64,000 nucleotides of DNA. It comes from a virus (lineage: Duplodnaviria > Caudoviricetes). The notes below the pieces were generated by a model. The model was not told the DNA's origin. It did not search any database and saw only the letters and a program-made list of their open reading frames with translations. Of this stretch, positions 12,225 through 42,983 are shown one piece after another. The stretch lies in IMG/VR virus record IMGVR_UViG_3300021387_001157, positions 129,841 to 193,840 of that record; one strand, 5' to 3'. Each line of letters begins with the position of its first letter. Position 1 is the stretch's first letter. A program made the translations under genes and the position numbers.

Positions 12225-12704
12225 TTAATTTTTAAATTCCCACAAATCTTTTTCTTTCAGTTCTATAATTCTTCCATCAACACGCTCGTCAAATGTTCCG
12301 TTTTTAATTTTTTCTTCTTGTTCGTCGGTGACGGCGGCATACATTCCCGAATGGATGGAACTTATACATGCTTCGTATTTACAGTCTTTATTTGAACATA
12401 TGTGTTCATATTTAAGTGGTGAAGTAAGGTATGCACCACCTTCTGTTTCTAATGGACTACCACACTCAGGACACCGTAAAACTATGTGTATCGGATGACG
12501 TGGTTCTACTTTTTCCACATCCCTAATTGGTCTAGACCATGGTTTATATTCAAACCGTGAATTCATTTCCTCCTTTGTTATCTCAATCTCGTAACCGTCA
12601 TTCATACGACACATCTTATGATACTCAGTATTTCCGATAACATACATTGCACCATTAAACCAAAAATCACCAGTTGATTTTTCAATAAATCTTTCTCTTT
12701 CCAT
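12225..12704 (-). CDS. zinc-ribbon protein
   Basis: CPECG..CSNKDC. Confidence 0.65.
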   Translation of the reverse strand: MERERFIEKSTGDFWFNGAMYVIGNTEYHKMCRMNDGYEIEITKEEMNSRFEYKPWSRPIRDVEKVEPRHPIHIVLRCPECGSPLETEGGAYLTSPLKYEHICSNKDCKYEACISSIHSGMYAAVTDEQEEKIKNGTFDERVDGRIIELKEKDLWEFKN

Positions 12705-14906: not shown

Positions 14907-15560
14907 TTACCAATTGAAAGCATAACCAAATCTTTCGTCTGGACGATTTGGAACTGGATACACGGGGTTATACGATGAAACAGAACCATCAACAGAAGAT
15001 ACATATGCTTGTACGTCTTGATTTCCAAAGATGTATAAAGGTTCCTTTTCGATTTGACCAGATTCTTTACGAAGGACACAGTGTCTTGAATGTGGTTTTA
15101 CACAATTTGCTCTCATCATTGCATCATAGGCGTGTGCAAAATCAATTCCCATAGGGTTAAATTTGTTCATTGGTTCGTCACCAAGCCAAAGACTGCTCGG
15201 AATTGAGTCATAGATTGTCGAGTCTACAGTATGTGTTATCAAATATATATCCATATCTCCAGACATTGAATCGGGTGCAAACGTAACAACTGAGAATATG
15301 TTTGTAACACTTGCAATATCGAAAACATCAGAGGAATCAATCCAGTCCTTTGAATCAATACAGCACTCGAGCCAACGATAGTCTTTGAAATTTACAGTCA
15401 TATACTCATTGTCAAGCATAATTGCTTTTTCAACGTCGACACCGGTAACATTATATGTAAGTGTATCATTTTCACCATCATTCTCTTGATGGCAAGAACT
15501 GCAAGAAATCGTAAAGACGGTAAGAAAAACCATCATCATAACAGTAAAAATCTTTTTCAT
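14907..15560 (-). CDS. lipoprotein
   Basis: signal peptide with lipobox-like Cys (ISCSSC). Confidence 0.7.
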   Translation of the reverse strand: MKKIFTVMMMVFLTVFTISCSSCHQENDGENDTLTYNVTGVDVEKAIMLDNEYMTVNFKDYRWLECCIDSKDWIDSSDVFDIASVTNIFSVVTFAPDSMSGDMDIYLITHTVDSTIYDSIPSSLWLGDEPMNKFNPMGIDFAHAYDAMMRANCVKPHSRHCVLRKESGQIEKEPLYIFGNQDVQAYVSSVDGSVSSYNPVYPVPNRPDERFGYAFNW

Positions 15561-15685
15561 TTTTTGTGTATTTTTGTATATTATTATTTATTGTTTTGTA
15601 ATCTAAATATAACAAAAAAGGTGTGATTTTTCACACCTAGATACAAATCTGACTTGGTTTTTTCATATTGTTATATTTGATTTTG

Positions 15686-16056
15686 TGACACCGGTGGGAC
15701 TCGAACCCACGACCCCAGCATTAACTTACCACACTTGCTTTTATACAAGTCATCTCATTGAGACGTTGTAGTCTGGACTATTTCTTAACCATGCTTTACA
15801 GTTTAGGTCTCCACCTATATAGTCTCTACGCCATTTACACATTTCTGTGCTTTAGAGAGCCGTCGCCAAAGTCTATGTCACCATAGACGAGGTTTCCGTT
15901 TGTTAGGGTGGATTCTACATCCCGACAGCATTAATTGTCGTTTTCTCCTTTCAGAAAGGATGCACTCTTTTTTGATTATGTTCTTTTCCATAAACTTTGT
16001 TATGAAAAGCACAAATCAGTCAAAGTGCCGTGCTCTACCTACTGAGCTACGGTGTC
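15686..16056 (-). tRNA. tRNA-Lys(UUU) interrupted by a group I intron
   Basis: exons join to CGGCA-CTT|TTAA-TGCTG. Confidence 0.85.
15725..16022 (-). ncRNA. group I intron (298 nt) in tRNA-Lys(UUU)
   Basis: GAGACTA (R) and AAGAAATAGTCC (S) core elements; terminal G; 5' exon ends in U. Confidence 0.8.
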
Positions 16057-16376
16057 AAATTGACAGAAGTTCTTCAAGTTTTTCATTTTTTGTTCTGACT
16101 TGTGTCGACAAACTTGTGTATCGGTGAATACTTTCATTCGGCTCTGTCAAACCGTCCAAAAAAACTATCACAACTCTGGACTCTCTTCAGCATCCCTTTG
16201 AAGTCTTATGAGTCTTCGATTCTCGACAGGACACCACTCCCAAAGAAAGTGTTTTAGAGCTCATTATACACAATCTATCGAGGAAAAATCTGCTTCGGAT
16301 GCATCGTGGGTTATCCCCTACCACGGGTAGAATGTTTATCGTCTCACATACCATTGACGTTAGCGAAACTATTTTG

Positions 16377-16449
16377 CATGACTCGGGGACTCGAACCTCC
16401 ATCTCCACAGTTGGACCCGTGTTGTTCTACCGAATTAAACTATCGCCAC
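16377..16449 (-). tRNA. degenerate tRNA-like gene
   Basis: D and T arms present; 6-nt loop GTCCAA; mismatched acceptor stem. Confidence 0.5.
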
Positions 16450-16476
16450 TAGACGAGGTTTTGGACACCTCGTTTG

Positions 16477-16619
16477 TGATAATGGGTGGATTCGAACCAC
16501 CATAGCCAAGAGTCTTTTCGTCTCAGTCAAGTATAGACCATGCTATCGTGGATAGTCTATATGACCTTCAAACGATTACTAATTAATCTTGTAGCACATC
16601 CTATCTGCTTCACACTATC
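16477..16619 (-). ncRNA. tRNA-scaffold RNA with expanded anticodon domain
   Basis: acceptor GATAGTG/CATTATC; T arm GGTGG-TTCGAAT-CCACC; long structured middle. Confidence 0.6.
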
Positions 16620-16627
16620 ATATTTTG

Positions 16628-16766
16628 CAGGAGTGGGAGGATTCGAACCACCGTCTACGGTTTTGTGACTATATATCAATTTCTCAATATATAACCTAGA
16701 ATTAAAGGCTCTCACAGGACCTCACCCTGTATGGAGACCGTCATTCTGCCACTGAACTACACTCCT
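16628..16766 (-). tRNA. tRNA-Trp(CCA) with 68-nt insert in the anticodon loop (about 16664-16731)
   Basis: exons join to ACGGT-CTCCA|AA-ACCGT. Confidence 0.8.
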
Positions 16767-16773
16767 ATATTTG

Positions 16774-16880
16774 ATACGACACTGAGATTCGAACTCTAAA
16801 CCCCTTCACCCATTTAAGGGAGTTATCTGACCGTCGTCAGTCCCAGCATTGGGAGTGTGCTACTATTACACCATATCGTA
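16774..16880 (-). ncRNA. tRNA-scaffold RNA with branched anticodon domain
   Basis: acceptor TACGATA/TGTCGTA, D arm and T loop TTCGAAT; no canonical anticodon loop. Confidence 0.6.
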
Positions 16881-17838: not shown

Positions 17839-17915
17839 TGTTGCTGGTTGGATTCGAACCAACGACCTTCTGTGTATCAGACAGATGCTCTAAAAACCAA
17901 CTGAGCTACAGCAAC
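17839..17915 (-). tRNA. tRNA-Ile(GAU)
   Basis: loop CT GAT AC. Confidence 0.9.
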
Positions 17916-17923
17916 ATATTCTG

Positions 17924-18100
17924 TGGTGAGGGTAGGATTCGAACCTACGAACTCCGAAGAGGGCAGATTGCTCTGTATGCCAGACTCGAACTGACTATTT
18001 ATGTTTATCATAAATTCTCCCGAATGAGTTTATACAGAGTTTGATTTTCAGTTTTCTCTGTATTACAGTCTGCTGCCATTAACCACTCGGCCACCTCACC
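17924..18100 (-). tRNA. tRNA-Tyr(GUA) with 94-nt anticodon-loop insert (about 17969-18062)
   Basis: exons join to GCAGA-CTGTAA|A-TCTGC; long variable arm. Confidence 0.85.
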
Positions 18101-18290
18101 AAATTTGCAAGCTACAAACGTTTTCTCGGAACTTAACTTGCTGTGTTGTACTTCCACAATAGTTTTGGGTGCTTTATCCTCACACCTCGTGGTTCTGATT
18201 TATCTAGTCAATTCAGAACAAACCCTGCTTTGCTCCGTTCCAATGCACTTATTGTCTTTGGCACTAGAATCGCTTAACAGTACAATCTTG

Positions 18291-18367
18291 TGCAGACAAT
18301 GGGACTCGAACCCATAACCACCCACCGGTTTAGAGCAGGCACTCTACCATCATTGAGTTATGTCCAC
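18291..18367 (-). tRNA. atypical tRNA, possible CUA (amber) anticodon
   Basis: good acceptor, D and T arms; CTCTAAA in an imperfect anticodon arm. Confidence 0.5.
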
Positions 18368-18481: not shown

Positions 18482-18604
18482 TCGGGAGGGTGGGACTCGA
18501 ACCCACGACCACGGCTACCCAAAAGCTATTAGAAAAACGTTGCTGTTTGATTCTTTACCAAGAATCTATCATTTACGTGCTCTAACCAACTGAGCTACCT
18601 CCCG
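18482..18604 (-). tRNA. tRNA-Pro(UGG) with 49-nt insert in the anticodon stem (18527-18575)
   Basis: removing the insert gives CG|GCT-TTTGGGT-AGCCG. Confidence 0.8.
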
Positions 18605-19241: not shown

Positions 19242-19523
19242 AACGACCGGGGCTGTCATCGATTCCACCATCCGATTTTATACGACATCGGAAAACGTTA
19301 GCGGAGAGAGTGGGACTCGAACCCACGACTACGGTCGTGACAGGACATTGAAGAACGTTGCTGTATGATTCTTTTTCAAGAATACTCTATTTACGTGTTC
19401 TACCAACTGAACTACCTCTCCATTTTGAGTTGTTTTAAGTCCAACCCAAACGACTGGGGCTTGCCGGTTTGAATCCGACGAGCGGTTCCACCATCCGATT
19501 TTATACGACATCGGAAAACGTTA
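19242..19523 (-). repeat. duplicated structured element (19242-19300 and about 19450-19523)
   Basis: AACGTTTTCCGATGTCGTATAAAATCGGATGGTGGAA..GCCCC.GTCGTT occurs twice. Confidence 0.75.
19302..19421 (-). tRNA. tRNA-Asp(GUC) with 47-nt insert in the anticodon stem (19347-19393)
   Basis: removing the insert gives CG|GTC-CTGTCAC-GACCG. Confidence 0.8.
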
Positions 19524-25284: not shown

Positions 25285-25402
25285 CAGGGTGGGTAGGATT
25301 CGAACCTACGTCACGGCTACCAAAAAGCAAAGAAAACGTATTGCTGTAAGATTCTTTCACAAGAATCAAAAATACGTGTCCTAACCACTAGACGACCACC
25401 CA
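25285..25402 (-). tRNA. tRNA-Gln(UUG) with 46-nt insert in the anticodon stem (25329-25374)
   Basis: removing the insert gives CG|GCT-TTTTGGT-AGCCG. Confidence 0.8.
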
Positions 25403-30043: not shown

Positions 30044-30331
30044 TTAAATTGAAATATTGATATTTTCTGGAAGTTCAAGAACACAATAACCTAATATTTC
30101 AGTATTATCCCATTCATTTTCTAAAAAATAGTTATGTGCAAATATTGTAATAGATGGATATATAGAAACATATATAATACGTTCTTTTTCCTCCAAAATC
30201 TTATTCCCATAATAGTCAAATTTTTTTTCCTTAATGTGACAAAGGAAATATTTTCCTTTGTCACGTAGGAAATTTATAGTCTCATTATTTACTCGTTTAG
30301 GTTTTTCAAAATATTCAAATTCAACTTTCAC
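30044..30331 (-). CDS. hypothetical protein
   Basis: ORF. Confidence 0.55.
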   Translation of the reverse strand: MKVEFEYFEKPKRVNNETINFLRDKGKYFLCHIKEKKFDYYGNKILEEKERIIYVSIYPSITIFAHNYFLENEWDNTEILGYCVLELPENINISI

Positions 30332-31757
30332 TTTTCTTAGATTTTAATACGTTCTTATATGCTTGCCTCATCAACTTCAAACAACTCTCACGAGTGATGT
30401 CTGGGTTGTTGTAGGCGTTACTCATAACCTGCTTTAAAATATCCTTGATGATAGGACCAGGTTCAACCCCAAGTTCATTGATGACATCATCACCGTTTAT
30501 CGGAAGTCTGTATCCGAACATCTTTGAAGTCTTTGCACACTCGACGAAACGTGTATATTGACCGGTTATGCAGTGACTCTTTTCGTGAGCGAGATTGTCT
30601 GCCTCGATGACTTGACAAGTTCTCAGAAAACGTTCCTCTGTACCACAGATGTACATAAATTTGTTGATTGACTTTTCCTTCATCTTACGGCAGTCGTTTT
30701 CAAACCCCTTTGCCCTCATATGGTTTCTAATGATGAAACACACTTCGTCAATGGTTTTGTTGTCAAACTTCAAACGTTGGAGTATTCTCTTTGCAACATC
30801 ACTACCGACAAGCTCGTGGTCGTAAAAATGAACTTTACCGTGTTCATCAACAGTTCTGCACTCTATCTTACCAATATCGTGGAGTAATGCACCGAGACGA
30901 CAAATCAAATCCGGTTCAAAGAGGTCACAGTCGTTCTTCAGAACGGCGAGGGTATGAACCCAGACATCACCGAAGTGATATGCATTTTGACCAAGACCGA
31001 TAGTCTGTTCAAGTTCAGGAATGACATACTTCATTGCACCGATGTCGTTGATGAGCATTATCCCATGATGAGCATTTTTTGTCATAAGGATTTTGCAAAG
31101 TTCATCGTTGATTCTCTCGACGGTGATGATAGAAAGTCTGTCGGCATTTCTCTTCATTGCATTGAAAGTCTCATCTGAAATCTTGAAACCAAACTTTGTA
31201 TGAAAACGGACAACCCTCAAAATTCTCAAAGGGTCGTCAATGAAAGTCTGGTCGACCATCTGTTCCGACACCATTTCCATAGGTACTCTCAAAACACCGT
31301 TGTGAATGTCTTTGATACCACTACCAGTCAAGTCCTCAACCTTCTTTTTCGAAATATTGTAGTAGAGAGCGTTTATGGTGAGGTCTCTACGACTTGCATC
31401 CTCACTCAACGGTGCAAATACAGTCTGTGGGTTACGGCTGCCGGCATCGGTGTATTTCTCACCACGAGTCATTACACACTCTATTTCGTCATCCGGAAAT
31501 TTATTGAAATGGAACATTGCTGTCCCGTATGTCTCGTATACAACAACTGTTTTTGTAAAACCGTTGTCTTTACACCAGTTTGCAAACCTCACACCACCTT
31601 GTGGAAGGTCTATAACGAGGTCAATATCCTTGATTTCTTTTTCCATAATCAAATCTCTCACGGAACCTCCGACGGCGAAAACGTGTCCCTCGAACTCACT
31701 CCCTTTGGTGATTTCATCAATATATGATGTTATTTCTAAAAATTTTTCTTTTGTCAT
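30321..31757 (-). CDS. cca: CCA tRNA nucleotidyltransferase with HD domain
   Basis: VGGSVRD..DIDL, RRDLTINAL, DDPLRILR, LLHDIGK. Confidence 0.92.
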   Translation of the reverse strand: MTKEKFLEITSYIDEITKGSEFEGHVFAVGGSVRDLIMEKEIKDIDLVIDLPQGGVRFANWCKDNGFTKTVVVYETYGTAMFHFNKFPDDEIECVMTRGEKYTDAGSRNPQTVFAPLSEDASRRDLTINALYYNISKKKVEDLTGSGIKDIHNGVLRVPMEMVSEQMVDQTFIDDPLRILRVVRFHTKFGFKISDETFNAMKRNADRLSIITVERINDELCKILMTKNAHHGIMLINDIGAMKYVIPELEQTIGLGQNAYHFGDVWVHTLAVLKNDCDLFEPDLICRLGALLHDIGKIECRTVDEHGKVHFYDHELVGSDVAKRILQRLKFDNKTIDEVCFIIRNHMRAKGFENDCRKMKEKSINKFMYICGTEERFLRTCQVIEADNLAHEKSHCITGQYTRFVECAKTSKMFGYRLPINGDDVINELGVEPGPIIKDILKQVMSNAYNNPDITRESCLKLMRQAYKNVLKSKKSES

Positions 31758-31769
31758 TTTTCCTCCTTT

Positions 31770-32102
31770 TTAATCCTTACAAAAATAATAGAAAATAAGT
31801 TGCAACATATTAATGTCATAAATCTTGAATTTTCTACAAAAGTAGGCTTTCTTTTGTGTACATCCTTCTTTCCAAATGATGAATCCGAGTTCGTCTGTGT
31901 CTGGTATATAATAAACCACATCTAATGTACTGTGGTCATCATATTCGATATCATAATCGGTTACATTTAAATGTAGTGTATTAAGGAATGGAGAAACTTT
32001 TTCACCATTTTCTTTTAATACATTTTTCACAGATTCAACAAGAATGTCGAATAACTCATTTTTCAAACCATCGATTTTTTCTTTTGCTTCTTTATAGTCC
32101 AT
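31770..32102 (-). CDS. hypothetical protein
   Basis: ORF following a promoter. Confidence 0.6.
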   Translation of the reverse strand: MDYKEAKEKIDGLKNELFDILVESVKNVLKENGEKVSPFLNTLHLNVTDYDIEYDDHSTLDVVYYIPDTDELGFIIWKEGCTQKKAYFCRKFKIYDINMLQLIFYYFCKD

Positions 32103-32237
32103 ATTTGTTTATTTTTTCGATGCAAAGATACGAACTTTTTTTGAATTACCAAACTTTTTTTTCAAAAAAATTGAATTTTTTTTATAACTAATTAGTTCAG
32201 TGGTAGAAAAAATTCATAATCAATCTTAAAACCTATT

Positions 32238-32410
32238 GTTATTTCTTGATAAGTTCAGTTTTTTTCCAGTTTTTTTTTATCCAATGTTCATCCGTTTGTA
32301 CGTGGTTTGCTCTTACGTATTTACAGACGTACTTTAGAAAATCCATAATTGGAAACCATTCAACTGTTCTCACAACAACACCTTCTTTTCCACACCATCC
32401 ACAGTTCCAT
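32238..32410 (-). pseudogene. remnant duplicate of the RNA ligase C-terminus
   Basis: GKEGVVVR..YVCKYVRANHVQTDEHW matches the end of 32646..33323. Confidence 0.7.
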
Positions 32411-32445
32411 TATTTCATCAATACTATATCAAACGTTTTCATCAT

Positions 32446-32670
32446 TTAGTCGTTCTTTAATAGTTCAACAATTTCTTCATCTGTATGCCACACACCGTTG
32501 AACGGTTTGAGTTCGGATTCAGTTCCGTTCTCAATGGCATCCATAAGTTTCAACACCTCGTTGTAGCAACGTGAACAAACCGAACATGTTCCGGATGAAC
32601 CACGATGGTTGAGACACTCTTTGTTTTGTTCTTGGATTTTACTCCTTAATGTTTCCCATTTTCCGTCCAT
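32446..32670 (-). CDS. hypothetical protein
   Basis: ORF. Confidence 0.5.
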   Translation of the reverse strand: MDGKWETLRSKIQEQNKECLNHRGSSGTCSVCSRCYNEVLKLMDAIENGTESELKPFNGVWHTDEEIVELLKND

Positions 32671-33323
32671 AATTGTGCTTTCTTCCAGTTCCTTGTCCAG
32701 TGCTCATCAGTCTGAACGTGATTTGCTCTTACGTATTTACAAACATAATTTGAAAATTCCATAATCGGAAACGAGTCTGTAATCCTCATCACAACACCCT
32801 CACGACCGCTTTTACAAGCATAGTATGATGTGTGTTCCATCAATTCGTCGATGATTTCCTTCACTTCACCCTCTTCTCTCAACACACACCTCTCCAATTC
32901 CGGAACGTGTGGGACACAGAGTATCTTTGCAAACTCCTTAACCTCATCCCAACTGTACCACAGATTACCGTCATTGACAGCGAACATATGCCAATAGTCT
33001 GACAGACAATCGTAATGGATAGAGTGCTCACCGTAAAGGTTCTCACCATAGATGGTTTCGTTTGGACCAATATACTGCTTAATTTTCCAATACAACCCAT
33101 CATACGAGTCCCAAAGGTTTCTTGACCAAGGAGACCTTGTTGGAGCACCGTGAGACCTTGCATACACATCATAATGTGTCATTGCTGTGTTTTCACCATC
33201 CAACTTCTCAGTGAATACAACCTCTTTTCCTTTATAGAAATCGAACCAACCGTCTTGAAGTTTTTTGTCGTCAGATGTTGCACCTGGTGACCAAGGAAGA
33301 TGGTATGTTCTTGGGTATTTCAT
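32646..33323 (-). CDS. ATP-dependent RNA ligase family protein
   Basis: YPRTYHLPWSPG; TEKLDGEN (motif I); GEN; EGVV; K.VR. Confidence 0.85.
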   Translation of the reverse strand: MKYPRTYHLPWSPGATSDDKKLQDGWFDFYKGKEVVFTEKLDGENTAMTHYDVYARSHGAPTRSPWSRNLWDSYDGLYWKIKQYIGPNETIYGENLYGEHSIHYDCLSDYWHMFAVNDGNLWYSWDEVKEFAKILCVPHVPELERCVLREEGEVKEIIDELMEHTSYYACKSGREGVVMRITDSFPIMEFSNYVCKYVRANHVQTDEHWTRNWKKAQLWTENGKH

Positions 33324-33535
33324 AGTGATATTATATACTTTTTTAGTTTTTCTTTCGAAATTCCAGTCATTTTTGACAATTCTTTCAAATCAACATCTAA
33401 GAAAAAATCCGATATTCCACGATAGTTGTTTGCTGGATTAACAGCATCAGTCAACCAAAACCGTGCATGTTCTACCCAGATTCGTCCGGATGCAGTCTTC
33501 TTTATTGACTTCTTTGTTTCTTTGATTGAGGACAT
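33320..33535 (-). CDS. hypothetical protein
   Basis: ORF. Confidence 0.5.
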   Translation of the reverse strand: MSSIKETKKSIKKTASGRIWVEHARFWLTDAVNPANNYRGISDFFLDVDLKELSKMTGISKEKLKKYIISL

Positions 33536-33894
33536 AATCTTGTGGATTTTATCAACATTATAATGTCTTTCTTTATATTCTCTCTATCTTTCGGTGATTC
33601 TATAGGGAGGTCGTCAAACAACATACGACAAACGATATTTTCCTTTTCGTAAGAATCATTGAAGTCTTTACACCCTTCCTTCAAGATTTCAATATGATTG
33701 AACCACAAACATATACGTTCCTCGTCGTGAATATGTTAAACTGGTGCAACCATAATAATTTCGTTGTTTTTGGTGGAGATGGATACGGAACCCCCATCAC
33801 GATATACATCGAATTTCAATGTTGGAAACTCGTTGAGAAGTTCCGTATACACCTCTTTTATGACAAACATAAACTCATCCCGTTTCATACCGAA

Positions 33895-34089
33895 TCAGTA
33901 AATTTTTTGGATGATTGAACCAAGTTCACTGTGGCACTTCTGCAACTTTGAATAGACCTCTGCACGGAGATTACCGGTTGCATCGTCTGAACAACCTAGA
34001 GACATAAGTTTTCCTGTCATTTCATCGAGTTTGTCCATAATCTCGATGGTCTGTTGTTTCAAACTGGATTTATTAAGAAATGTACTCAT
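33895..34089 (-). CDS. hypothetical protein
   Basis: ORF. Confidence 0.5.
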   Translation of the reverse strand: MSTFLNKSSLKQQTIEIMDKLDEMTGKLMSLGCSDDATGNLRAEVYSKLQKCHSELGSIIQKIY

Positions 34090-34225
34090 TTTTCGTATTG
34101 TCTTGTTTCTAAATTAAAAATTTTGTTGTCTGTGCCTTTAACACAATTCCTTGCAGAATTGATGTCTTTCTTGCCACACTTTACGTGACTGTCTTTGTCA
34201 ACTATTACATACTTTGGGGTAATCT

Positions 34226-34648
34226 TCATCTTTTTGTATTTTTAAAGTTAAACTTGACGTAACCAGACAAGGTTATAACCGGCATCTCTTTCCAATCTTT
34301 GATGTTGTTTGAATCAACCGGTTTCCCACCGTTGTCCGGATTTGTCATAACAGTGATGTGTTTAATTTCATTTGCACAAGGAATGTCTGTTTCGAGTTTC
34401 ACGGCAAACGCTTTATCAGAAACACCGTATTCGTATGCAAACACACGAAACATCTTTCCCTCATTTTCCATACACCAATCAAGTATTTCGTCAATCATAT
34501 TTGTATGAAAGGCGATTGTGTGATGTTCGGCAATGATTCTACCGTTTTCCCACTTTGGTGCAAACTTCATCACCTCATCCAACAACAATCTCTTTGATTC
34601 CTCAGTGAGGACAAGAGATGTATACAATAAGTTATTCATGTGCAGCAA
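34226..34648 (-). CDS. 2H phosphoesterase (cyclic phosphodiesterase, Trl1-CPD-like)
   Basis: two HxT motifs (HHTI, HITV); GKPVDSN. Confidence 0.75.
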   Translation of the reverse strand: MLHMNNLLYTSLVLTEESKRLLLDEVMKFAPKWENGRIIAEHHTIAFHTNMIDEILDWCMENEGKMFRVFAYEYGVSDKAFAVKLETDIPCANEIKHITVMTNPDNGGKPVDSNNIKDWKEMPVITLSGYVKFNFKNTKR

Positions 34649-34892
34649 AGTTTATGATTTCTATTTCACTACCTAGAGAGAAACTTCTGAACTCGTTTTT
34701 CTCCATATCGAAAAAAACCTGTACCTTCGGAGACGACGGACGGCTGGGTTTCCAATCACCAAGTTTCTCAGTGAGAATGTTGGTTTGAAGAGTTCCAACG
34801 GCGGTTCTGATAGAGCCATCTTTCTTTTTAAACGTGAAAGTTACAACTCCTTTGTGGAGGTCTTCCTTTATTTGTTCTGCTACCGTTCTCAT
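34632..34892 (-). CDS. WYL-like SH3 beta-barrel protein (DUF2693-like)
   Basis: VVTFTFKKKDGSIRTAVGTL..FFDMEKNEFRSF. Confidence 0.75.
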   Translation of the reverse strand: MRTVAEQIKEDLHKGVVTFTFKKKDGSIRTAVGTLQTNILTEKLGDWKPSRPSSPKVQVFFDMEKNEFRSFSLGSEIEIINFAAHE

Positions 34893-35029
34893 TTTTTTTC
34901 TTTTTTATAAGTTAAACTTCTTTTTTATTTCTCGATGCAAAGATACGAACTTTTTTTGAATTATCAAACTTTTTTTTCAAAAAAATTTAATTTTTTTTCG
35001 TAACTTGTTGATATAAAGTGATAAAAAAA

Positions 35030-35758
35030 TTAATTTTTTTTGTATTTTGTAGCACAATTAGAGATAATTTTCTTATAATTAGGGTTCTCTATATTGTATT
35101 TTGTGTGCATTTTTCTATAATACTCATCACGAGTTGGGATATGGTTAAAAATTTCATAGTCCCACAATACCCTGTCGAGAACAGAGCATTTCCAGTTCTT
35201 AAAGGTGGCGAATCTTCCAGACTTATACAGAGATAATGTTTTTCTCTGTGTTGGGTGGTCCATTCCGAACAAGTTGTTATAACTTCTACCGACATTTGAA
35301 TTACCAAAACCAGACTCAATTTGAGCACAAGACTTAATCACTTCTGGATACCAGATAACACCTTGTTCCGTTAGATAATCTATATATTCACAAACACTTT
35401 CCTCGGTACATTTCCCACAATTTTTTTCTAACATCACCACACCAATTTCGTGGTATAGAGTAAATTCACTTTCTTTGTATTTTTTGTCGTTAATTTCCGA
35501 TTTAAGTGACTCTATGGTTTCCAAATGTGTTTCGACCTTTCCCTTATGGTTTTGCAAGTCTGTATGTATAAAAAAGATGACACACAAAAGAAATGCAATA
35601 AATGATAACAATAATATGTTTTCTTTTGATATATAACTTCTTTTATTGAATAAAAGTGTGTTCATATCAAGTGTATATCTTCTATGTGACTCTATTGTAG
35701 ATTTTACTTTTTTTAAAAAATTTACAATAAAGTTTTTCAGTTTTTTTATCTGTTCCAT
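35030..35758 (-). CDS. membrane-anchored glucosaminidase (peptidoglycan hydrolase)
   Basis: TM helix; AQIESGFG..NNLFGM. Confidence 0.75.
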   Translation of the reverse strand: MEQIKKLKNFIVNFLKKVKSTIESHRRYTLDMNTLLFNKRSYISKENILLLSFIAFLLCVIFFIHTDLQNHKGKVETHLETIESLKSEINDKKYKESEFTLYHEIGVVMLEKNCGKCTEESVCEYIDYLTEQGVIWYPEVIKSCAQIESGFGNSNVGRSYNNLFGMDHPTQRKTLSLYKSGRFATFKNWKCSVLDRVLWDYEIFNHIPTRDEYYRKMHTKYNIENPNYKKIISNCATKYKKN

Positions 35759-35862
35759 ACTTATATATTTTATTATATTTACAAAGATACTATTTTTTAA
35801 TTAAAAAAAATGGGGTACAACCAATATTAGTTATACCCCATACTTTCATTTTCTCGTCTTTG

Positions 35863-37440
35863 TTAAGAATCTTCATCATCAACTCCGTTGGCGGCATAGT
35901 ATTCATCCATTTCGGCATAGGTGAGTTGAGTTTCCATATCGACCTCACCAGCATCATACTGCTTTCTTTCTCTTATTCTGAATGCTTCTGTCTTCAGTTT
36001 AAAAGCTTCTGCCTTTTCGTCATTTTCTATACGGATGACGACACCTTCACGTGGAACACATTTATTACACATCGGTTCGTTCATCTCCATACCGAATCTT
36101 TGTTTGTCGTTTTCAAGTCGTTCAAGCAACGATTCTTGCCAGTGATGTTCTGTGTCGAGGTCTGGATAAAGGTCTCCTAGACGACCATGATAAAGGATTG
36201 TGATTGGCTTTATTTTACCTTTCAACTCGGGATGTTCATTCAAAATATTTATTGTCCATTGATAAACATCCTGTACATTCCAATCAACATGGTTTCCTTC
36301 GGCATCAGTTTCGGTTATTCTGTAAGGCATCAAGATGTTCTCACCGATTTTACAACCGTAGTCGTAACCCTTCTGAATCATACTTGTTGTACCGGTAACA
36401 TAACCGACAATCTCACCATACAATGTCATACCTTCATTCAAAAGTGGATAAATAATCTTTCCGTACTCTGACCAAATATCGACCTTGTAGAAACCCTTTC
36501 CAACTTCTTTATTGATGTACTTGTTCTTTATAACACCTCTTGAAGACGTTATTTCACCATACTTAACAACAAATTCTGGAAGTAATCTCTCTCTTCTCTT
36601 GTGGTCTATTGAACTCATAGTTCTTCTGATGAAGTTTCTGATTTCCCTGACAGATTTCTTCATGAAACTCTCATCAAGGTATTTCTTTGTGAGAACATTA
36701 CCACATATGAATGATGTTCCATGCTCCTTAACAGAGATATCAACAACTGTGTCAGGATTGAATTTCCAGAGATTATCCTTCAACAATTTTGTGTCGTAGT
36801 GGAAAGCAAACTGACCATCTACCATACGGTCGAGTTTCATCATAGTCTTTCCTCTCTTTCGGTCTTTCTTAGAAACTCCTGTCGGATTGTTTTGACGGTG
36901 CTGAACTGGTGGAATGTATGCCTTTATGAAAAGAATACCATCAACGGTGTCAAAATCAAATGGGACAACAATTCCATCTTCATTTGGTTCGAAACACTTC
37001 TCAAAATCATAGTCCAACACCTTTGGATTCCACTTAGCAAGAGAATCGATTGAGAAAAGACATCCTTCAGATGTACACCCACGAAGTTTGACCATCTTCA
37101 CACGACCGTGTTTGTTGAAATATCCAACCATCTTCTTAGCTTCGGATTCCTTGCCTTCATCAATGAGTTTCTGAACTTCCTCATAGTTTTTGTTGAGATG
37201 TCTTTCACTCATTTCAAACTGGTTGTTGACAGACAGGAAATCCTTGTTGATGGCGGTCTCCATCTTACAATAGACCATGATGTCACCTTCCTTTACACTA
37301 TCCTTTCCGACAACGACTTGGTATGCACCTCCAATTTTTGTTTTGACGAGAAAATCAGAACCCTCAATTGGAAGCAACTCACCAATCTTTACAATTTGAG
37401 CACAATACTCCGGTTTTATTTTTTCACTTTTTGTAAACAT
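35863..37440 (-). CDS. RNA ligase (DRB0094/Rnl2-like, N-terminal OB domain)
   Basis: PIEGSDFL OB segment; KEHGTS, LYGEIVG, EGVV, FKLK. Confidence 0.8.
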   Translation of the reverse strand: MFTKSEKIKPEYCAQIVKIGELLPIEGSDFLVKTKIGGAYQVVVGKDSVKEGDIMVYCKMETAINKDFLSVNNQFEMSERHLNKNYEEVQKLIDEGKESEAKKMVGYFNKHGRVKMVKLRGCTSEGCLFSIDSLAKWNPKVLDYDFEKCFEPNEDGIVVPFDFDTVDGILFIKAYIPPVQHRQNNPTGVSKKDRKRGKTMMKLDRMVDGQFAFHYDTKLLKDNLWKFNPDTVVDISVKEHGTSFICGNVLTKKYLDESFMKKSVREIRNFIRRTMSSIDHKRRERLLPEFVVKYGEITSSRGVIKNKYINKEVGKGFYKVDIWSEYGKIIYPLLNEGMTLYGEIVGYVTGTTSMIQKGYDYGCKIGENILMPYRITETDAEGNHVDWNVQDVYQWTINILNEHPELKGKIKPITILYHGRLGDLYPDLDTEHHWQESLLERLENDKQRFGMEMNEPMCNKCVPREGVVIRIENDEKAEAFKLKTEAFRIRERKQYDAGEVDMETQLTYAEMDEYYAANGVDDEDS

Positions 37441-37716
37441 AGTTTTTTAAATTTTAATTGTTGATTGTTTCTTTTGGGGTTCAAGTCCTACCTTCTTACC
37501 ACCCCATTTTTACAGAACGGGGAAACTGTTACTTTAAATATAACAAAAAATCACCATTCTATTACTAAATTACTACATTTTTTTCATTATGAATTGGAAG
37601 AGTGTTACTCGTACCGAAGACATTGAATACCACTAGTTTTTTTGTGTAATCGAAATCCTTTGACCTTGCTATACTTAATTCTATCTCATATAATTCTTTA
37701 TTTGTGTCCATTACAT

Positions 37717-38351
37717 TTACTTTATTTTCTCACAAGCCTTGTTCCGGAAGATGTCACAAAGTTCCCAATACGAGATTGGTCTATATCCATTTTGGTCAAC
37801 TCCGACATCATACTGGTTCTTTCTTAGACGTGACGGAACATCACCGTCTATTCCGTAACAAGTACCGTCGCTCAAAGTATGAATGTGACCGAACACTTGG
37901 AAATCACCATTGAAAGCACAGCATGGATAGTGTTCACCATAAATCTTAACACCATCTACCATAATGAACGCCTTGTCAACAACGGCAATGAGATTCTCCT
38001 GTGGTTCCGTGCATAATGATATATAGTCATGGTTTCCTCTAATTAAGAGAATATTTCCAGTTAACTTTTTCATATATCTTAAATATGCATTCGTATCGAC
38101 TTTATGGTTCAACATAAAGTCTCCACAATGAATTACTATACCGTCTTCCGGAACAACAGAATTCCAATTCTCTATGAGAGTTTTGTCCATTTCTGACCTT
38201 GAATTAAATGGTCTGTGACAATACTTACAGATATTAAAATGTCCAAAATGAGTTAGGTGTCCGAGGTAAAATACAACTTATTTGGGTCATTTACACCCAA
38301 TGTGTATATACCTCGGAAATTGTTTGCTTCAATTGTTAAATTGTTTGTCAT
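37717..38351 (-). CDS. calcineurin-like metallophosphoesterase, interrupted by 5 nt (38251-38255)
   Basis: LYFTSDT*[ct]HFGH, HCGDF, RGNHD, FGHIH, DVGVD. Confidence 0.75.
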
Positions 38352-38392
38352 TTTCTTTTATTTTACGAATGTTTTTATATATTTTACCTTCT

Positions 38393-38929
38393 TTAAGTTG
38401 CATGACTCTCGATATAAGTTTTATATTTCTTGTATGTATCTCTTATCACATTCTCACCAACTGGATGCTCCCTCTTGGAATCACGCTCAATACACACCTC
38501 GAGTGGTGTGTAAATGAACCGATACTCAACGGCATATCCATACTCACGAGCCATCTTCTCAAGACCCTTTCTGATTTTGGAGTTGAGGTTCATGTTATCA
38601 GACACAACATCTTTTCCACTTTTGAATGCAGCGGTTAAAGCAGCATTTTCAATCTTTGTGACAATGTTTTCGAGATTTGGGTTAAACGGTTTTCCCATCA
38701 TCAATCGAATTTCATCACGATTGACACGGATACGATTGTCGGGGTCTTCAAGGACAAACTTACGAGCAGCAGTAGACTTACCACTTCCCTGCAATCCTTG
38801 ATATATATAGAATGTCTTTTTTTTATTCATTGAAGTCTTCTTATTCTTTAATTTGAATATCCAATCCAACAAATAAATTACCAAAAATAAAATGCATAAT
38901 ATTATTGCAATAACTAAATAAAACATCAT
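38393..38929 (-). CDS. polynucleotide kinase-like P-loop kinase (AAA_33)
   Basis: GLQGSGKST, RVNRDEIR, DNMNL, CIERDSKR. Confidence 0.85.
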   Translation of the reverse strand: MMFYLVIAIILCILFLVIYLLDWIFKLKNKKTSMNKKKTFYIYQGLQGSGKSTAARKFVLEDPDNRIRVNRDEIRLMMGKPFNPNLENIVTKIENAALTAAFKSGKDVVSDNMNLNSKIRKGLEKMAREYGYAVEYRFIYTPLEVCIERDSKREHPVGENVIRDTYKKYKTYIESHAT

Positions 38930-38930
38930 A

Positions 38931-39362
38931 TTAATTCTCGTTTTTTAATTCTTCACGTACTTGCATTAAAATCTTTCCAAGGTTATTCTGTCCCTTTCCG
39001 TTACAGACACCCCATATTGTGTCACCCCAGTCATTTCCTTCTTCAAGATAAGCGTCTCCGGTTGCAAGGAGTTTTTCTTTCAAATCCTCGTTTTGTTGGA
39101 ACTTGTTTCTAACAATTTCCAACATTTCTTTTATTTTTATCTTATCCCAATCATGTCTAAGGATAACATTTCTACCTTTTCTTTTTGCCCGAGACGGGTC
39201 GAGTTCCTGAAACTGCTTTCTTTGTTCATAAGAACTGCATTTCTGTGCTTGAAAAGCGGCCTCACTATTCTTGAACTTCAAACCGTCATATTCAACCGGT
39301 GCTTCAAAAAAATTGCTCAAGAAAAAATATTTTCCTTTAAAACAATCAATCTTATTTTTCAT
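38931..39362 (-). CDS. NADAR (YbiA/DUF1768) family protein
   Basis: FLSNF, SEAAFQAQK, KFQQN, WGDTIWG, GQNNLGKILM.VR. Confidence 0.92.
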   Translation of the reverse strand: MKNKIDCFKGKYFFLSNFFEAPVEYDGLKFKNSEAAFQAQKCSSYEQRKQFQELDPSRAKRKGRNVILRHDWDKIKIKEMLEIVRNKFQQNEDLKEKLLATGDAYLEEGNDWGDTIWGVCNGKGQNNLGKILMQVREELKNEN

Positions 39363-39429
39363 ACCAAAAAGATACTATTATTATTTCAAATTATTAAAAA
39401 TATAAATACTTTATATAAAAAAAATTATT

Positions 39430-40215
39430 ATGGACAAACTTAAAAAAGTAATCGACTTTATAGTCAAGTACAAAACATTGTTTCTAATCGGTATCATCTT
39501 GTGTATGTCAGTAATCGTTGTAAACCAATGTTCATCTAACAAAAACCTCAAGAATGAGATTAAAAAACAACATAACAACGAACTCGCCTTACAAGACTCA
39601 ATCACACAGTACACCGATGAACTTGGAAGAGTAAATGCAGAAAAACATGCATATCAACTTTCCCAAAAAGAACTATCCGATTCTATCGGTAAAATTAACA
39701 AGAAACATTTTGAATATGTTTCATACTTAAACACACAACTCGGAATAAAGGATACTGTTGAACTGTTTTTCTACATTGACAGACCATACAGGGATACAAG
39801 TAAATTTGATAACGGAGTCATCAAAATAGACACAACCAATACATTTGGAAAATCTAGTCGTAAACTTCTCGTCTCAATCCCTTATGACATAGATACAATG
39901 TTGAACCTACAAAAAAGCACAATTTCACTCGAGCAGAACATCTTCCTCGAAGGATGGCTTGAACGAAACAACAAGACCAACGAAACATTCGTGCATCTAC
40001 GTTCTGACTACCCAGGTATAACGTTTAATGGTGGAAACGGTTTTGTTGCCGAACCATCTGCCAAATATGACAGAAGTATGAGAAAAAACATGGGTATTGG
40101 ACTTTTTGTTGGACCATCAGTTGGTTTCGGATACACACCAGAGAAATGGCAGCCTTATGTTGGTCTATCGGTTGGTGTTGGTCTCACATTTACTCCGAGA
40201 TTTCTCCAATGGTAA
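39430..40215 (+). CDS. membrane-anchored coiled-coil protein (possible lysis/spanin-like)
   Basis: N-terminal TM, coiled coil, C-terminal beta-rich GIGLFVGPSVGFGY. Confidence 0.55.
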   Translation: MDKLKKVIDFIVKYKTLFLIGIILCMSVIVVNQCSSNKNLKNEIKKQHNNELALQDSITQYTDELGRVNAEKHAYQLSQKELSDSIGKINKKHFEYVSYLNTQLGIKDTVELFFYIDRPYRDTSKFDNGVIKIDTTNTFGKSSRKLLVSIPYDIDTMLNLQKSTISLEQNIFLEGWLERNNKTNETFVHLRSDYPGITFNGGNGFVAEPSAKYDRSMRKNMGIGLFVGPSVGFGYTPEKWQPYVGLSVGVGLTFTPRFLQW

Positions 40216-40217
40216 TC

Positions 40218-40248
40218 TAAAAGGATGAACATCGTTCATCCTTTTTTT
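40218..40248. terminator. bidirectional terminator
   Basis: AAAAGGATGAAC-ATC-GTTCATCCTTTT between convergent genes. Confidence 0.7.
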
Positions 40249-40414
40249 TATTCGTCTATTATAAATGACTTTTTACACTTCTTACATCTTAGTATATATG
40301 AATTTTCAACATCGTCCCATTTGACTTCATCTGACTTAAAATGTTTTCCACAATTCGGACATCGGTTGAAAAGCAATCTTAGTTTTTCAATAAACGTAGT
40401 CACTCTCATCTATT

Positions 40415-40750
40415 TCACTTTTTGTTATCTCTGTTTTTACCTATATGGTATCCGTCACAAAACAAACACTTATATGCACTGAAATGAACACCACGTTTTT
40501 TTGACATTGCTTCTGCACTTTTCAAAGCAGTTTCCTTTGTGTTATATGTGACTTTTGGCTGTCCAGTAGTTTGGTTTATATGGGAATTTATTGAAAATGC
40601 TCCCCAAGCATTCCTGGTTATGAAAAAGTTATAAAAAAACCTCTTTCTTTTAACTTGGTCTAAAAACCACATCCAGAAATTCTTAAACTTTATTCTCTGT
40701 TTCATCATTCCAATGTTTAACAACTTCATTTTCATAATACTCATACACAT
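40415..40750 (-). CDS. hypothetical protein
   Basis: YKCLFCDGYHIG zinc-finger-like. Confidence 0.55.
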   Translation of the reverse strand: MCMSIMKMKLLNIGMMKQRIKFKNFWMWFLDQVKRKRFFYNFFITRNAWGAFSINSHINQTTGQPKVTYNTKETALKSAEAMSKKRGVHFSAYKCLFCDGYHIGKNRDNKK

Positions 40751-40868
40751 TCATATAACAACTATGTGTCTTGTCCATCTTTCGTTTTGCTTCAAAAAGG
40801 ATAGAAAATATCTTGTATAAAGTATCATTTGATGGAAGTTCGCTATTTGTGTTTTTTTCTTGTATTTT

Positions 40869-40906
40869 AAAAAGGGATTCTCTAATTCAATCTGAGAATC
40901 CCTTTT
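40869..40906 (-). terminator. intrinsic terminator
   Basis: AAAAAGGGATTCTC..GAGAATCCCTTTTT. Confidence 0.7.
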
Positions 40907-40938
40907 TATATCCTTTTGTATAAGATTCTACATCCATT

Positions 40939-41256
40939 TTAATAAAGTTGTCTTGCATCATCTATGGACAGCATAGTCTTATTTTCCAAATCCAACCTAA
41001 ATCTTTCTGTTGGATTTTCGACACTATATGCATATTTTCCATCGAAAAATATATGATAAACACCATCATTCGTCAATACAACATGTGTCCATGCAGATGT
41101 CATTGCATCTCCGCCGACACCGCCGAAACCTAGTGATGTGTTCCCCCACATCTGTGTAAATACCCAGACATTCTCAACTTCCAAATCAGGAAACGTGGAC
41201 ATTCTGTCATCAACTTTTATTGTCGATAAAGATAAACTTTTTAACATTTTTTTCAT
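40939..41256 (-). CDS. hypothetical phage protein
   Basis: FTQMWGNTSLGFGGVGG. Confidence 0.65.
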   Translation of the reverse strand: MKKMLKSLSLSTIKVDDRMSTFPDLEVENVWVFTQMWGNTSLGFGGVGGDAMTSAWTHVVLTNDGVYHIFFDGKYAYSVENPTERFRLDLENKTMLSIDDARQLY

Positions 41257-41389
41257 AATAAACTATTCTTGTTTGTTTTTATTTTTGTCAATTATCACTA
41301 AAATATTTTTATTTTTTTCCATTGTCTCTTTCATAGCTTTTTGTTTAGCTTCCTCTAAAAGAGTGTACATTGTGTTATCACTGTTCATA

Positions 41390-42070
41390 TTATTCTAATT
41401 TTTTACATTCTTCTTCACTATATTTTTCATGAAGTCTGTCAATCCACCATTTTGTTTTGAATTTCACTTTCGGCATTCTCTGCCCTTTCAACAAAGAAGA
41501 CCTTCGACAAACAACACCTTCTTTGACCATTGGGTATTTACAATCCGGTTTCGTCCAGTCATTTTCGAAAATTTCATTGATGAAAGTCTTCGTCAAAATT
41601 CCTTGGTATATGAGTTCGGGGGTTTCAATGTCTGGATTGTCACAAAATAGTTCAATAAATGGTTTCGGTTCAATGTATCCCTTTTTCTTGATAAAGACAT
41701 CAATGAGTGGTAGTCTCATCTCATCACCAATCTGGTGTACACCGGCGAAACTGTTCTCACCATACCATTCAAAAAAGAACGTCACTTCATCAACTCCTGT
41801 GAATAAACCACCTTTACCATTGTTTTTCTTCACAATTTCTGTGAGAACTTGTGGTATAGTTGAATTTTTGAAAAATCTGACGGTATTGCCAAACTGTTCA
41901 GATGATTCATCTACCATCTGTGTTCTGCTCCCAAACGTATCGAATACCATCTTTTTCAGATTAAACTTTGCACAGAAATTCTGACCGTCCAACTTATTGA
42001 AAGCATACACATATTCCCCCATAAGTGTTCCGTCATCTTCTATTCTAGATATACTGTCGTAATGTTTCAT
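41390..42070 (-). CDS. RNA ligase-like nucleotidyltransferase
   Basis: KLDGQN, FFEWYG, EGVV, K.K. Confidence 0.75.
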   Translation of the reverse strand: MKHYDSISRIEDDGTLMGEYVYAFNKLDGQNFCAKFNLKKMVFDTFGSRTQMVDESSEQFGNTVRFFKNSTIPQVLTEIVKKNNGKGGLFTGVDEVTFFFEWYGENSFAGVHQIGDEMRLPLIDVFIKKKGYIEPKPFIELFCDNPDIETPELIYQGILTKTFINEIFENDWTKPDCKYPMVKEGVVCRRSSLLKGQRMPKVKFKTKWWIDRLHEKYSEEECKKLE

Positions 42071-42318
42071 TGTTTCAACAATAGTTTTTTTACAAATTCA
42101 CCAAAAAACTCTGCTTGCTTTTTTTCTTCCTCTTCTGTGAATTCCGGTGAGCTCATTCTTTCTGGATGTTCATCGAGAAATCTGTCTGAATGAAGATGTG
42201 TTGTTGTTCCATCTTCATTCACACTGATACTTTCAAGTTCATATGCAAGTGTATTTTTGTATATTTCATGAAGAATCTCAATAGAACGGTTTTTACAAGT
42301 TCTACACAACTTATCCAT
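42067..42318 (-). CDS. hypothetical protein
   Basis: ORF. Confidence 0.5.
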   Translation of the reverse strand: MDKLCRTCKNRSIEILHEIYKNTLAYELESISVNEDGTTTHLHSDRFLDEHPERMSSPEFTEEEEKKQAEFFGEFVKKLLLKQ

Positions 42319-42321
42319 AAG

Positions 42322-42981: not shown

Positions 42982-42983
42982 AT

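Follow-up and report, generated by a model that had tools for sequence, protein, structure and literature searches.

A tRNA-shaped insert in the anticodon loop of a phage tRNA-Tyr gene is very probably a Lak-type intron

What is a second tRNA-like fold doing inside the anticodon loop of a phage tRNA-Tyr gene, and could a functional tRNA still be made from such a gene? The gene that raises this question lies at 17924-18100 on the minus strand of the window analysed here, which is the final 64 kb of the 193,840-base IMG/VR contig IMGVR_UViG_3300021387_001157 (a contig estimated to be 67% complete); positions given below are those of the window unless another record is named. To our knowledge, all the tRNA introns that have been described from bacteria and phages are self-splicing, and most of them are group I introns. 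A tRNA nested in another has been proposed before: Devoto et al. (2019, Nat Microbiol, PMC6784885) reported "enigmatic" introns in the tRNAs of Lak megaphages, one of which "itself may encode a tRNA", gave the intron sequences in their Table S6 and also in Fig. 4, and put the intron-bearing genes among "pseudo tRNAs". Since that family is too small to self-splice and no splicing enzyme was known for it, the puzzle of its removal was already raised in 2019. Here we follow up a preliminary description of the tRNA-Tyr locus, and we are confident that its insert belongs to this Lak-type family of tRNA-shaped introns. Our overall reading goes one step further and holds that the intron is spliced by proteins, through an RNase Z-type cut, a second cut and a ligase; as a whole, we consider that reading evenly balanced between right and wrong.

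The insert sits in a genuine, bacterial-type class II phage tRNA-Tyr(GUA) gene. The interrupted gene is 177 nt long and encodes no CCA, and the Rfam tRNA model RF00005 matches it (17924-18100, -) at 45.3 bits while leaving 95 bases unaligned inside the anticodon loop. The 5' exon (18064-18100, -; RNA positions 1-37) ends in ...GCAGA-CUGUA, or at 18063 under the equivalent 37/38 placement of the insert, and the 3' exon (17924-17969, -) starts with AA-UCUGC and continues through a long variable arm, the T arm and the acceptor strand to A73. The body is that of a bacterial class II tRNA-Tyr, with the anticodon stem GCAGA/UCUGC, the loop CUGUA(A), the variable arm CCUCUUCGGAGU and the discriminator A73. 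When the exons are joined in silico they would read CUGUAAAUCUGC across the junction, and ARAGORN at its default threshold calls the product an 83-nt tRNA-Tyr(gta). This product is 85-90% like the uninterrupted tRNA-Tyr genes of other phage contigs, to which it is identical but for 1 base from the D arm through the anticodon arm. The host phage has 34% GC, an estimated size of ~290 kb and standard-looking open reading frames (ORFs), and the split gene belongs to a minus-strand array of >30 tRNA genes and a permuted tmRNA that spans 14.8-29.7 kb of the window. No second tRNA-Tyr gene was detected in the 64-kb window, just as the preliminary description had stated, nor across the 193.8-kb contig. 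Immediately upstream of the split gene, at 18290-18367 (-), stands a tRNA with the anticodon CUA, of the amber-reading type.

The insert occupies 94 nt at 17970-18063 (-), from AUACAGAG at its beginning to ACAGAGC at its end, as delimited by the match of a covariance model (17963-18073) together with a boundary rule, both of which are set out below; the equivalent 37/38 placement would put it at 17969-18062. Its first part reads AUACAGAGAAAACUGAAAAUCAAA-CUCUGUAU. The leading 24 nt (18040-18063) form a conserved 5' module made of A-U-A, a mini-hairpin CAG-AGAAAA-CUG (18049-18060) and an A-rich linker AAAAUCAAA, and they are followed by the 5' strand of a nested acceptor stem, CUCUGUAU (18032-18039), which pairs at 8 of 8 positions with 17971-17978. 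At the DNA level this stem is CTCTGTAT (18039-18032) paired with ATACAGAG (17978-17971), and a second copy of ATACAGAG lies at 18063-18056, the 5' end of the insert. The stem encloses a D-arm-like hairpin CUC-AUUCGG-GAG (18017-18028), whose loop GG is kept in the family; an AU hairpin UUUAUG-AUAAA-CAUAAA (17998-18014) in the place of an anticodon arm, which is variable or absent in relatives; and a T arm GUCAG-UUCGAGU-CUGGC (17979-17995) with a canonical T loop and a closing pair of the G53-C61 type. The insert ends, as AUACAGAGC, with the nested acceptor's 3' strand AUACAGAG and a discriminator-like C (together 17970-17978), the 3' end of the intron falling after that C. The 8-bp acceptor and the 5-bp T stem make a nested stack of 13 bp, and the fold of the insert is more stable than that of shuffled controls (z = -3.3). 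The elements named in the preliminary description, namely the 8-bp stem, the D-like segment, the TTTATG/CATAAA hairpin, the T arm and the end repeat, are thus all in place.

As a tRNA gene in its own right the nested element fails: RF00005 has no match to it at E<=10 when it is searched alone, its anticodon arm is irregular, and ARAGORN calls the 69-nt cloverleaf only at relaxed thresholds (-ps80 or -ps50). Taken alone, the nested fold is weak evidence, and its significance comes from comparison with a family. The Rfam models of group I introns (RF00028) and of small ribozymes (hammerhead, twister, pistol, hatchet, HDV, hairpin) gave no match at E<=10 in 17880-18140, in agreement with the earlier statement that a group I core is lacking.

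To make that comparison, relatives were gathered from the Lak loci of a phage collection, from IMG/VR by a scan with ACAGAGNAAACTGN{1,5}AAATCAA, and from JGI and ENA metagenomes with the same word plus the T loop. The scans yielded intron-bearing tRNA genes on 3 large contigs of IMG/VR (150-303 kb) and a dozen from metagenomes. A covariance model, R1, was built from 12 aligned relatives, with the present insert excluded and the structure taken from the parse. Run against the window, R1 finds this insert at 71.5 bits (E 5.5e-15, 17963-18073) over the full model and with every pair kept, while the runner-up in the 64-kb window reaches 21.9 bits; R1 searches of whole records brought in additional copies, located in other tRNAs. 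Covariation was assessed on 22 distinct sequences, this insert among the rows, in an alignment fitted to the model structure. Paired cells make up 99.3%, against 74% in shuffled alignments and <=41% when the partner is slid; in 19 of 21 pairs both sides have changed; and covariation extends to all 8 pairs of the nested acceptor and 4 of the 5 pairs of the T stem, the last T-stem pair being GC in 21/21 copies. The T loop GUUCGA and the GG of the D-loop region are invariant or nearly so in the aligned relatives. The stems of the 5' mini-hairpin covary across subfamilies, and the 5' module recurs nearly unchanged in the Lak-A1 Phe intron and in the IMG/VR and metagenome relatives.

Members of the family open with N-U-A and a small hairpin whose hexaloop is A-rich; an A-rich linker leads on to the 8-bp acceptor, the D loop with its GG and the T arm, and a C closes the insert. 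In the present insert we find a 5' module with a hairpin in the 3-5 bp range, an A-rich hexaloop and a linker of the AAAUCAAA type (here AUA-CAG-AGAAAA-CUG-AAAAUCAAA); an acceptor of ~8 bp on a 5-bp T stem, with a T loop of the UUCGA type and GG in the D loop; and a site within the range 35/36 to 37/38 from which removal leaves a 7-nt loop, with the C at 17970 followed by AA and no CCA. At one extreme of the family the nested part is an almost complete tRNA, at the other just a minihelix; its anticodon-like middle is variable or absent, and ARAGORN accepts the nested part as a tRNA in 2/22 cases by default and in 11/22, this insert included, at the 80% threshold. What is conserved in the family is a tRNA elbow with its acceptor helix, not a decodable tRNA. 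It is the score of a model that had not seen this sequence, together with the strong covariation, that gives the nested fold its significance: it is a selected structure, kept by compensatory changes, and membership of the insert in the Lak-type family is very probable. The insert is a new, non-Lak member of a published intron class. Its phage is not a Lak phage and has no DNA similarity to the Lak megaphages except for bits of tRNA, and BLAST of the tRNA array against the phage collection returned matches to tRNA-sized pieces only. The family reaches beyond the Lak megaphages, as this copy shows.

Where does the intron begin and end? The intron-less Thr alleles of Lak-C1 and Lak-B1 fix the Thr intron of Lak-A1, which lies between CUUGU and AAUGAGC and runs from UUACAAUC to CAUAGAGC; from these empty sites it follows that the Lak Thr intron ends 1 base past the nested acceptor stem. 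The resulting boundary rule, by which the intron ends after the first base past the nested stem, was applied to 23 distinct copies. Under this rule all 23 introns terminate in a C, with no CCA after it in any of them, the start is N-U-A in every copy (AUA, UUA and, once, CUA), and removal leaves a 7-nt anticodon loop in all 23. Default ARAGORN calls a canonical tRNA for 20 of the 23 spliced products, and body and anticodon match, class II with A73 going with Tyr(GUA) and class I with G73 going with Asn(GUU); one class II copy reads Tyr(GUA) under the rule and would otherwise read GUU. Only under this rule do the spliced products make biological sense, and the rebuilt loops imply what would be a precise removal. 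For the present intron the rule gives 18063-17970, between positions 36 and 37. The preliminary description had placed the 94-nt insert at 37/38. An insert in the anticodon loop it certainly is, and the two placements give the same product because A flanks both junctions; the family, with its relatives at 35/36 or 36/37, favours 36/37.

The rule also bears on published annotations. The Lak genes with this intron that Devoto et al. list as "Tyr(GTA)" are probably tRNA-Asn(GUU) genes split at 35/36, because they combine G73 and a short variable arm with an intron end at the nested discriminator; the class I genes labelled tRNA-Tyr(GTA) that read as Asn(GUU) are L160 (Lak-A1 500013-500122), L161 (Lak-B1), L136:2575-2674, L141 and L152:794-894. 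Another member of the family, L156:1501-1620 (G003:264712-264831), gives under the rule the spliced loop UUUCAAA with the anticodon UCA, of the opal-reading type; the alternative placement reads UCC (Gly).

The repeat at the two ends of the insert had suggested that TACAG could sequester the anticodon. The nested 3' strand AUACAGAG is indeed identical to the first 8 bases of the intron, and because of this duplication two near-isoenergetic folds exist: the family fold at -50.8 kcal/mol, and an alternative at -52.0 kcal/mol that pairs CUCUGUAU with the 5' copy, and the 3' UACAG with the anticodon sequence CUGUA. To this extent the suggestion holds for this copy. In relatives the complementarity between the 5' end of the intron and the nested 5' strand is 2-7/8, compared with 8/8 here, and UACAG is absent at the corresponding place in the other Tyr hosts of the family; masking is therefore regarded as unconserved and was rejected as a family-wide feature, and the anticodon-masking repeat looks peculiar to this copy.

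The insert is small, mobile and not self-splicing. One and the same intron (90% identity) is found in the Phe tRNA of one phage and in the class II Tyr tRNA of another, 2 phages with identical Tyr exons have introns that are only 62% identical, and the Thr gene that is split in Lak-A1 is intron-less in Lak-C1 and Lak-B1. Exons are more conserved than the cargo of the intron. The present intron is 56-72% identical to its relatives and therefore represents a separate lineage. An exact 5' module with the T loop had no match in 185,579 bacterial and archaeal species-representative genomes; the pattern AGCAGACTGTAA-N70-100-ATCTGCC met only chance matches or adjacent tRNAs in IMG/VR, and the pattern ATACAGG..CCTG..GGTTCGAATCC met only T arms of adjoining tRNAs. 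The preliminary description had proposed a comparison with the orthologous locus in related phages. The sister contig IMGVR_UViG_3300028833_000064 (93% amino-acid identity in a neighbouring ORF) has no copy of the split gene: in the slot of the tRNA-Sup(CUA) and the split tRNA-Tyr, at 12393-12690 (+) of that contig, there is a different tRNA-Tyr, which a 210-nt group I intron splits after CUGU (RF00028 38.3 bits, E 4e-8, which is below the gathering score, at full length), so that there is no orthologue there for comparison. Homologous inserts came instead from Lak, IMG/VR and metagenome phages. The intron is most likely a selfish element, tolerated, as we infer, because it is removed. Movement by IS200/IS605-like DNA transposition was considered and set aside: the sequences that precede the inserts share no target word, and a canonical T loop suggests that recognition takes place on the RNA; no search for a Y1 transposase was made.

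A 22-nt form of the module, ACAGAG(T/A)AAACTG..AAATCAA, also occurs outside tRNAs, in ~80 copies in IMG/VR (for example L039:631-652, L044:183-204 and 445-466, and L043). These copies lie 28-54 nt upstream of start codons, on smaller phage contigs with A-rich leaders, and the proteins that follow form a family of 96-168 amino acids with the N-terminus M-x-K/N-F/Y-I/L-K-F/I, for which PHROGs gave no function and named phages gave no match. The module might serve there as a promoter or as a signal for RNA processing; alternatively, a single abundant lineage may match it by chance.

How, then, might the intron leave the transcript? Judging from the loops that its excision would rebuild, we think that it is probably removed at the RNA level, and we propose that the pre-tRNA-Tyr would be spliced by proteins. 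The nested elbow and acceptor would recruit a host RNase Z-type tRNA 3'-end endonuclease, whose cut after the nested discriminator C (17970) would leave a 5'-phosphate on the 3' exon. A 3' cut of this type is the most economical reading because the intron stops at the discriminator of a mimic with conserved elbow and acceptor, after which no CCA follows; that RNase Z itself makes the cut we hold to be somewhat doubtful. A second cut, between N and N-U-A in the single-stranded junction, by an RNase E/G-like or other nuclease, would leave a 3'-OH on the 5' exon, and an ATP-dependent RNA ligase, for instance the PF09414 protein of the phage, would seal the nicked anticodon loop. RNase P may additionally free the nested tRNA-like RNA. 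The 5' splice site always lies before N-U-A, in a single-stranded joiner beside the small covarying hairpin; RNase E prefers a U two bases after its cut, which a cut between N and W-U fits. ATP-dependent RNA ligases seal anticodon-loop nicks that have a 3'-OH and a 5'-phosphate, and bacterial tRNA-Sec, which has an 8/5 stack of 13 bp, is processed by the normal enzymes. Excision by tRNA-processing nucleases followed by phage ligation had already been put forward in the preliminary description, and the intron end at the nested discriminator in 23/23 copies and the ligases nearby speak for it; a scheme of RNase P, RNase Z and ligase does not suffice, however, because the 24-nt 5' module would stay on the 5' exon.

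RNA ligases and end-healing enzymes are encoded 12-26 kb from the split gene. The candidate sealing enzyme is an ATP-dependent RNA ligase family protein at 32646-33323 (-; Pfam PF09414, 88 bits), and a second, weak ligase-like ORF of the PF09414 type lies at 41390-42070. A polynucleotide-kinase-like P-loop kinase, AAA_33, at 38393-38929 (-) is a candidate end-healing enzyme, metallophosphoesterases are found at 37717-38190 and 42984-43838, and a CCA-adding enzyme with an HD domain (30321-31757, -; Pfam PF01743, PF12627, PF01966) provides context for a tRNA-Tyr without encoded CCA. The RNA repair and maturation cluster to which they belong (30321-44596, -) adjoins the tRNA array and also holds a PHA02142 OB-fold protein, a weak 2H/CPD-like ORF, NADAR and ClpP. 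RtcB (PF01139), RNase Z-like (PF12706) and RNase E/G (PF10150) proteins were found in none of the 7 phage records searched, and EndA (PF01974) is absent from this contig, the one record searched for it. A control genome, that of Bacteroides thetaiotaomicron, has RtcB together with the Pfam families to which RNase Z (Lactamase_B_2) and RNase E/G belong; its genus shares an order with Prevotella, the Lak host genus.

Several observations weigh against protein splicing by this route. The assignment of the 5' splice-site nuclease is a guess. With 13 bp instead of 12 in the nested stack, RNase Z might cut one base off, and the nested stem begins with C and not G, which is unusual for substrates of RNase P. 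In Tyr and Phe hosts the boundaries can be shifted by one A, and the literature searched shows excision of no member of the family. The PF09414 ligase is also present in the sister phage, which lacks this intron, and so the ligase is not specific evidence. The whole pathway as proposed is, in our estimate, rather unlikely to be right in every step.

Other explanations have to be weighed against the same observations. A dedicated nuclease, or catalysis by the three-way junction of the intron (host anticodon stem, 5' hairpin and nested stem), might remove the intron and leave 2',3'-cyclic phosphate and 5'-OH ends. It would fall to the phage kinase, phosphoesterase and ligase to heal and seal these ends, or to host RtcB to join them, and the tRNA-like part would then be only a folding clamp, or would serve the intron after excision. 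Such a mechanism fits the position of both splice sites in unpaired joiners of one junction, the strong sequence conservation of the 5' module (hexaloop ARWAAA plus linker AAAUCAAA) and the short, though not fixed, spacing between the 5' splice site and the hairpin. It would also give employment to the healing-and-sealing kit of the window (the AAA_33 kinase, the 2 metallophosphoesterases, the HD-domain CCA enzyme and the ligases), a kit needed only for cyclic-phosphate and 5'-OH ends. Repair kits are common in large phages, however, as a counter to anticodon nucleases, the models of known self-cleaving ribozymes and group I introns have no match at E<=10, and there is neither an EndA in this contig nor an RtcB in the phage records searched. 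The exact end of the intron at the nested discriminator would be left unexplained, and we consider this mechanism unlikely.

It is also conceivable that the insert is never removed, so that the gene would be a pseudo-tRNA, or a tRNA-shaped scaffold displaying the nested element as a nuclease decoy or as the partner of a Ro60-like DUF2828 protein. The 3' end of the insert, AUACAGAGCAA, resembles a WWACAGCAA handle that occurs 9 times in the tRNA array, 3 neighbouring tRNA-like genes with such handles have intact paralogues, the contig encodes a DUF2828 protein (at ~42.7-43.5 kb in contig coordinates), and Devoto et al. (PMC6784885) put genes of this kind among "pseudo tRNAs". In the handle RNAs, though, a hairpin is followed by an unpaired WWACAGCAA, whereas here the sequence is ACAGAG-CAA with ACAGAG base-paired, and ACAG is not kept in the family, where tails such as GAAGCAAA and GGGCUAA occur. 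The distribution of DUF2828 does not follow that of the intron: the sister phage has the protein without the intron, and no copy was found on the 3 incomplete intron-carrying IMG/VR contigs; neither DUF2828 nor PF09414 separates carriers from non-carriers. A gene that stays unspliced would have no need of flanks that always rebuild a canonical 7-nt loop with an anticodon matching the body type and the discriminator, and both the status of the split gene as the only Tyr tRNA on the contig and the stronger conservation of the exons relative to the cargo speak against this explanation as well, which we disfavour as improbable. As to an assembly chimera or a recent, meaningless disruptive insertion, the locus is known from a single metagenome contig; but homologous inserts occur at the same place in independent assemblies (complete, manually curated genomes of Lak phages, contigs of IMG/VR, and metagenomes from JGI and ENA), with compensatory changes that preserve the insert structure, and an artefact is for that reason very unlikely indeed.

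Other genes of the array are interrupted too. The sole tRNA-Trp(CCA), at 16628-16766 (-), has a 68-nt insert directly after the anticodon, which begins with UACAGGGUGAGGUCCUGU and a similar UACAG hairpin, is without the A-rich linker and without a T loop, scores only 13.9 bits with R1, and is kept in the sister contig IMGVR_UViG_3300028833_000064 at 15012-15150. At 15685-16056 (-), the intron mode of ARAGORN suggests a tRNA-Lys(UUU) with a 298-nt insert; RF00028 found nothing at E<=0.1 in 15600-16800, the region of this candidate. A module consisting of a hairpin and WWACAGCAA lies within the anticodon stem of 3 tRNA-like genes (18482-18604, 19302-19421 and 25285-25402, all -), which were taken as Pro, Asp and Gln and of which only the Pro(UGG) copy was parsed, with its insert at 28/29. 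Intact Pro, Asp and Gln tRNA genes are also in the array, and free-standing copies of WWACAGCAA stand between tRNAs near 18144, 21996, 22149, 24812, 24887 and 25546.

If the proposed splicing is real, it would amount to a third, so far undescribed route of tRNA splicing in bacteria and phages, in which the tRNA mimic of an intron lets end-processing nucleases open the anticodon loop and a ligase reseals it; we put this forward as a distinctly doubtful proposition. Were the work done by host tRNA-maturation nucleases and a ligase, both the splicing pathway and this mode of life of a mobile element within essential genes would be new, and the "tRNA inside a tRNA" would be a general strategy by which mobile elements hijack tRNA maturation. 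The comparison yields rules that can be tested: a start at N-U-A, an end at the nested discriminator C, and a tRNA elbow and 13-bp 8/5 stack that are kept.

Among known systems, YrlA-type Y RNAs and the ACAGCAA-handle RNAs likewise embed a tRNA-like domain in a larger small RNA, but the handle RNAs have another conserved module and sit at 28/29 instead of 36/37, and the present insert has no unpaired ACAGCAA. In phage T4, Pnkp and Rnl1 repair anticodon loops cut by a host anticodon nuclease, with no intron involved; as there, a phage kinase/phosphatase and an RNA ligase near the tRNA cluster could here seal a broken loop. Group I tRNA introns (RF00028) also insert into bacterial-type anticodon loops, but they measure at least ~200 nt against 94 nt here, and the present insert has no P3-P9 core and ends in C or A, not in a terminal G. 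The preliminary description had drawn a link to the 37/38 site of archaeal and eukaryotic tRNA introns, which have a bulge-helix-bulge (BHB) motif, are cut by EndA/Sen and are joined by RtcB or Trl1. Those introns are likewise short and beside the anticodon, the present insert looks equally protein-dependent, and its site is compatible with 37/38; the agreement is coincidental, though, for the family has its sites at 35/36 or 36/37, has no conserved BHB and carries a tRNA-like domain of its own, no EndA was found in this contig, and the helix with a 5-nt bulge in the alternative fold of this copy is not conserved in the family. Closest are the Lak introns, which share the anticodon-loop site, the nested acceptor, the T arm and the terminal C, at 79-114 nt compared with 94 nt here. 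The Phe intron of Lak-A1 begins UUAACAGAGUAAACUGUAUUAAAUCAAU-CUCUAUAA and ends UUAUAGAGAC, its 5' module UUAACAGAGUAAACUGUAUUAAAUCAAU standing against AUACAGAGAAAACUGAAAAUCAAA in this intron. What sets this copy apart from its Lak-type relatives is a nested cargo with D-like and AU hairpins of its own, and the alternative fold that its duplicated AUACAGAG provides.

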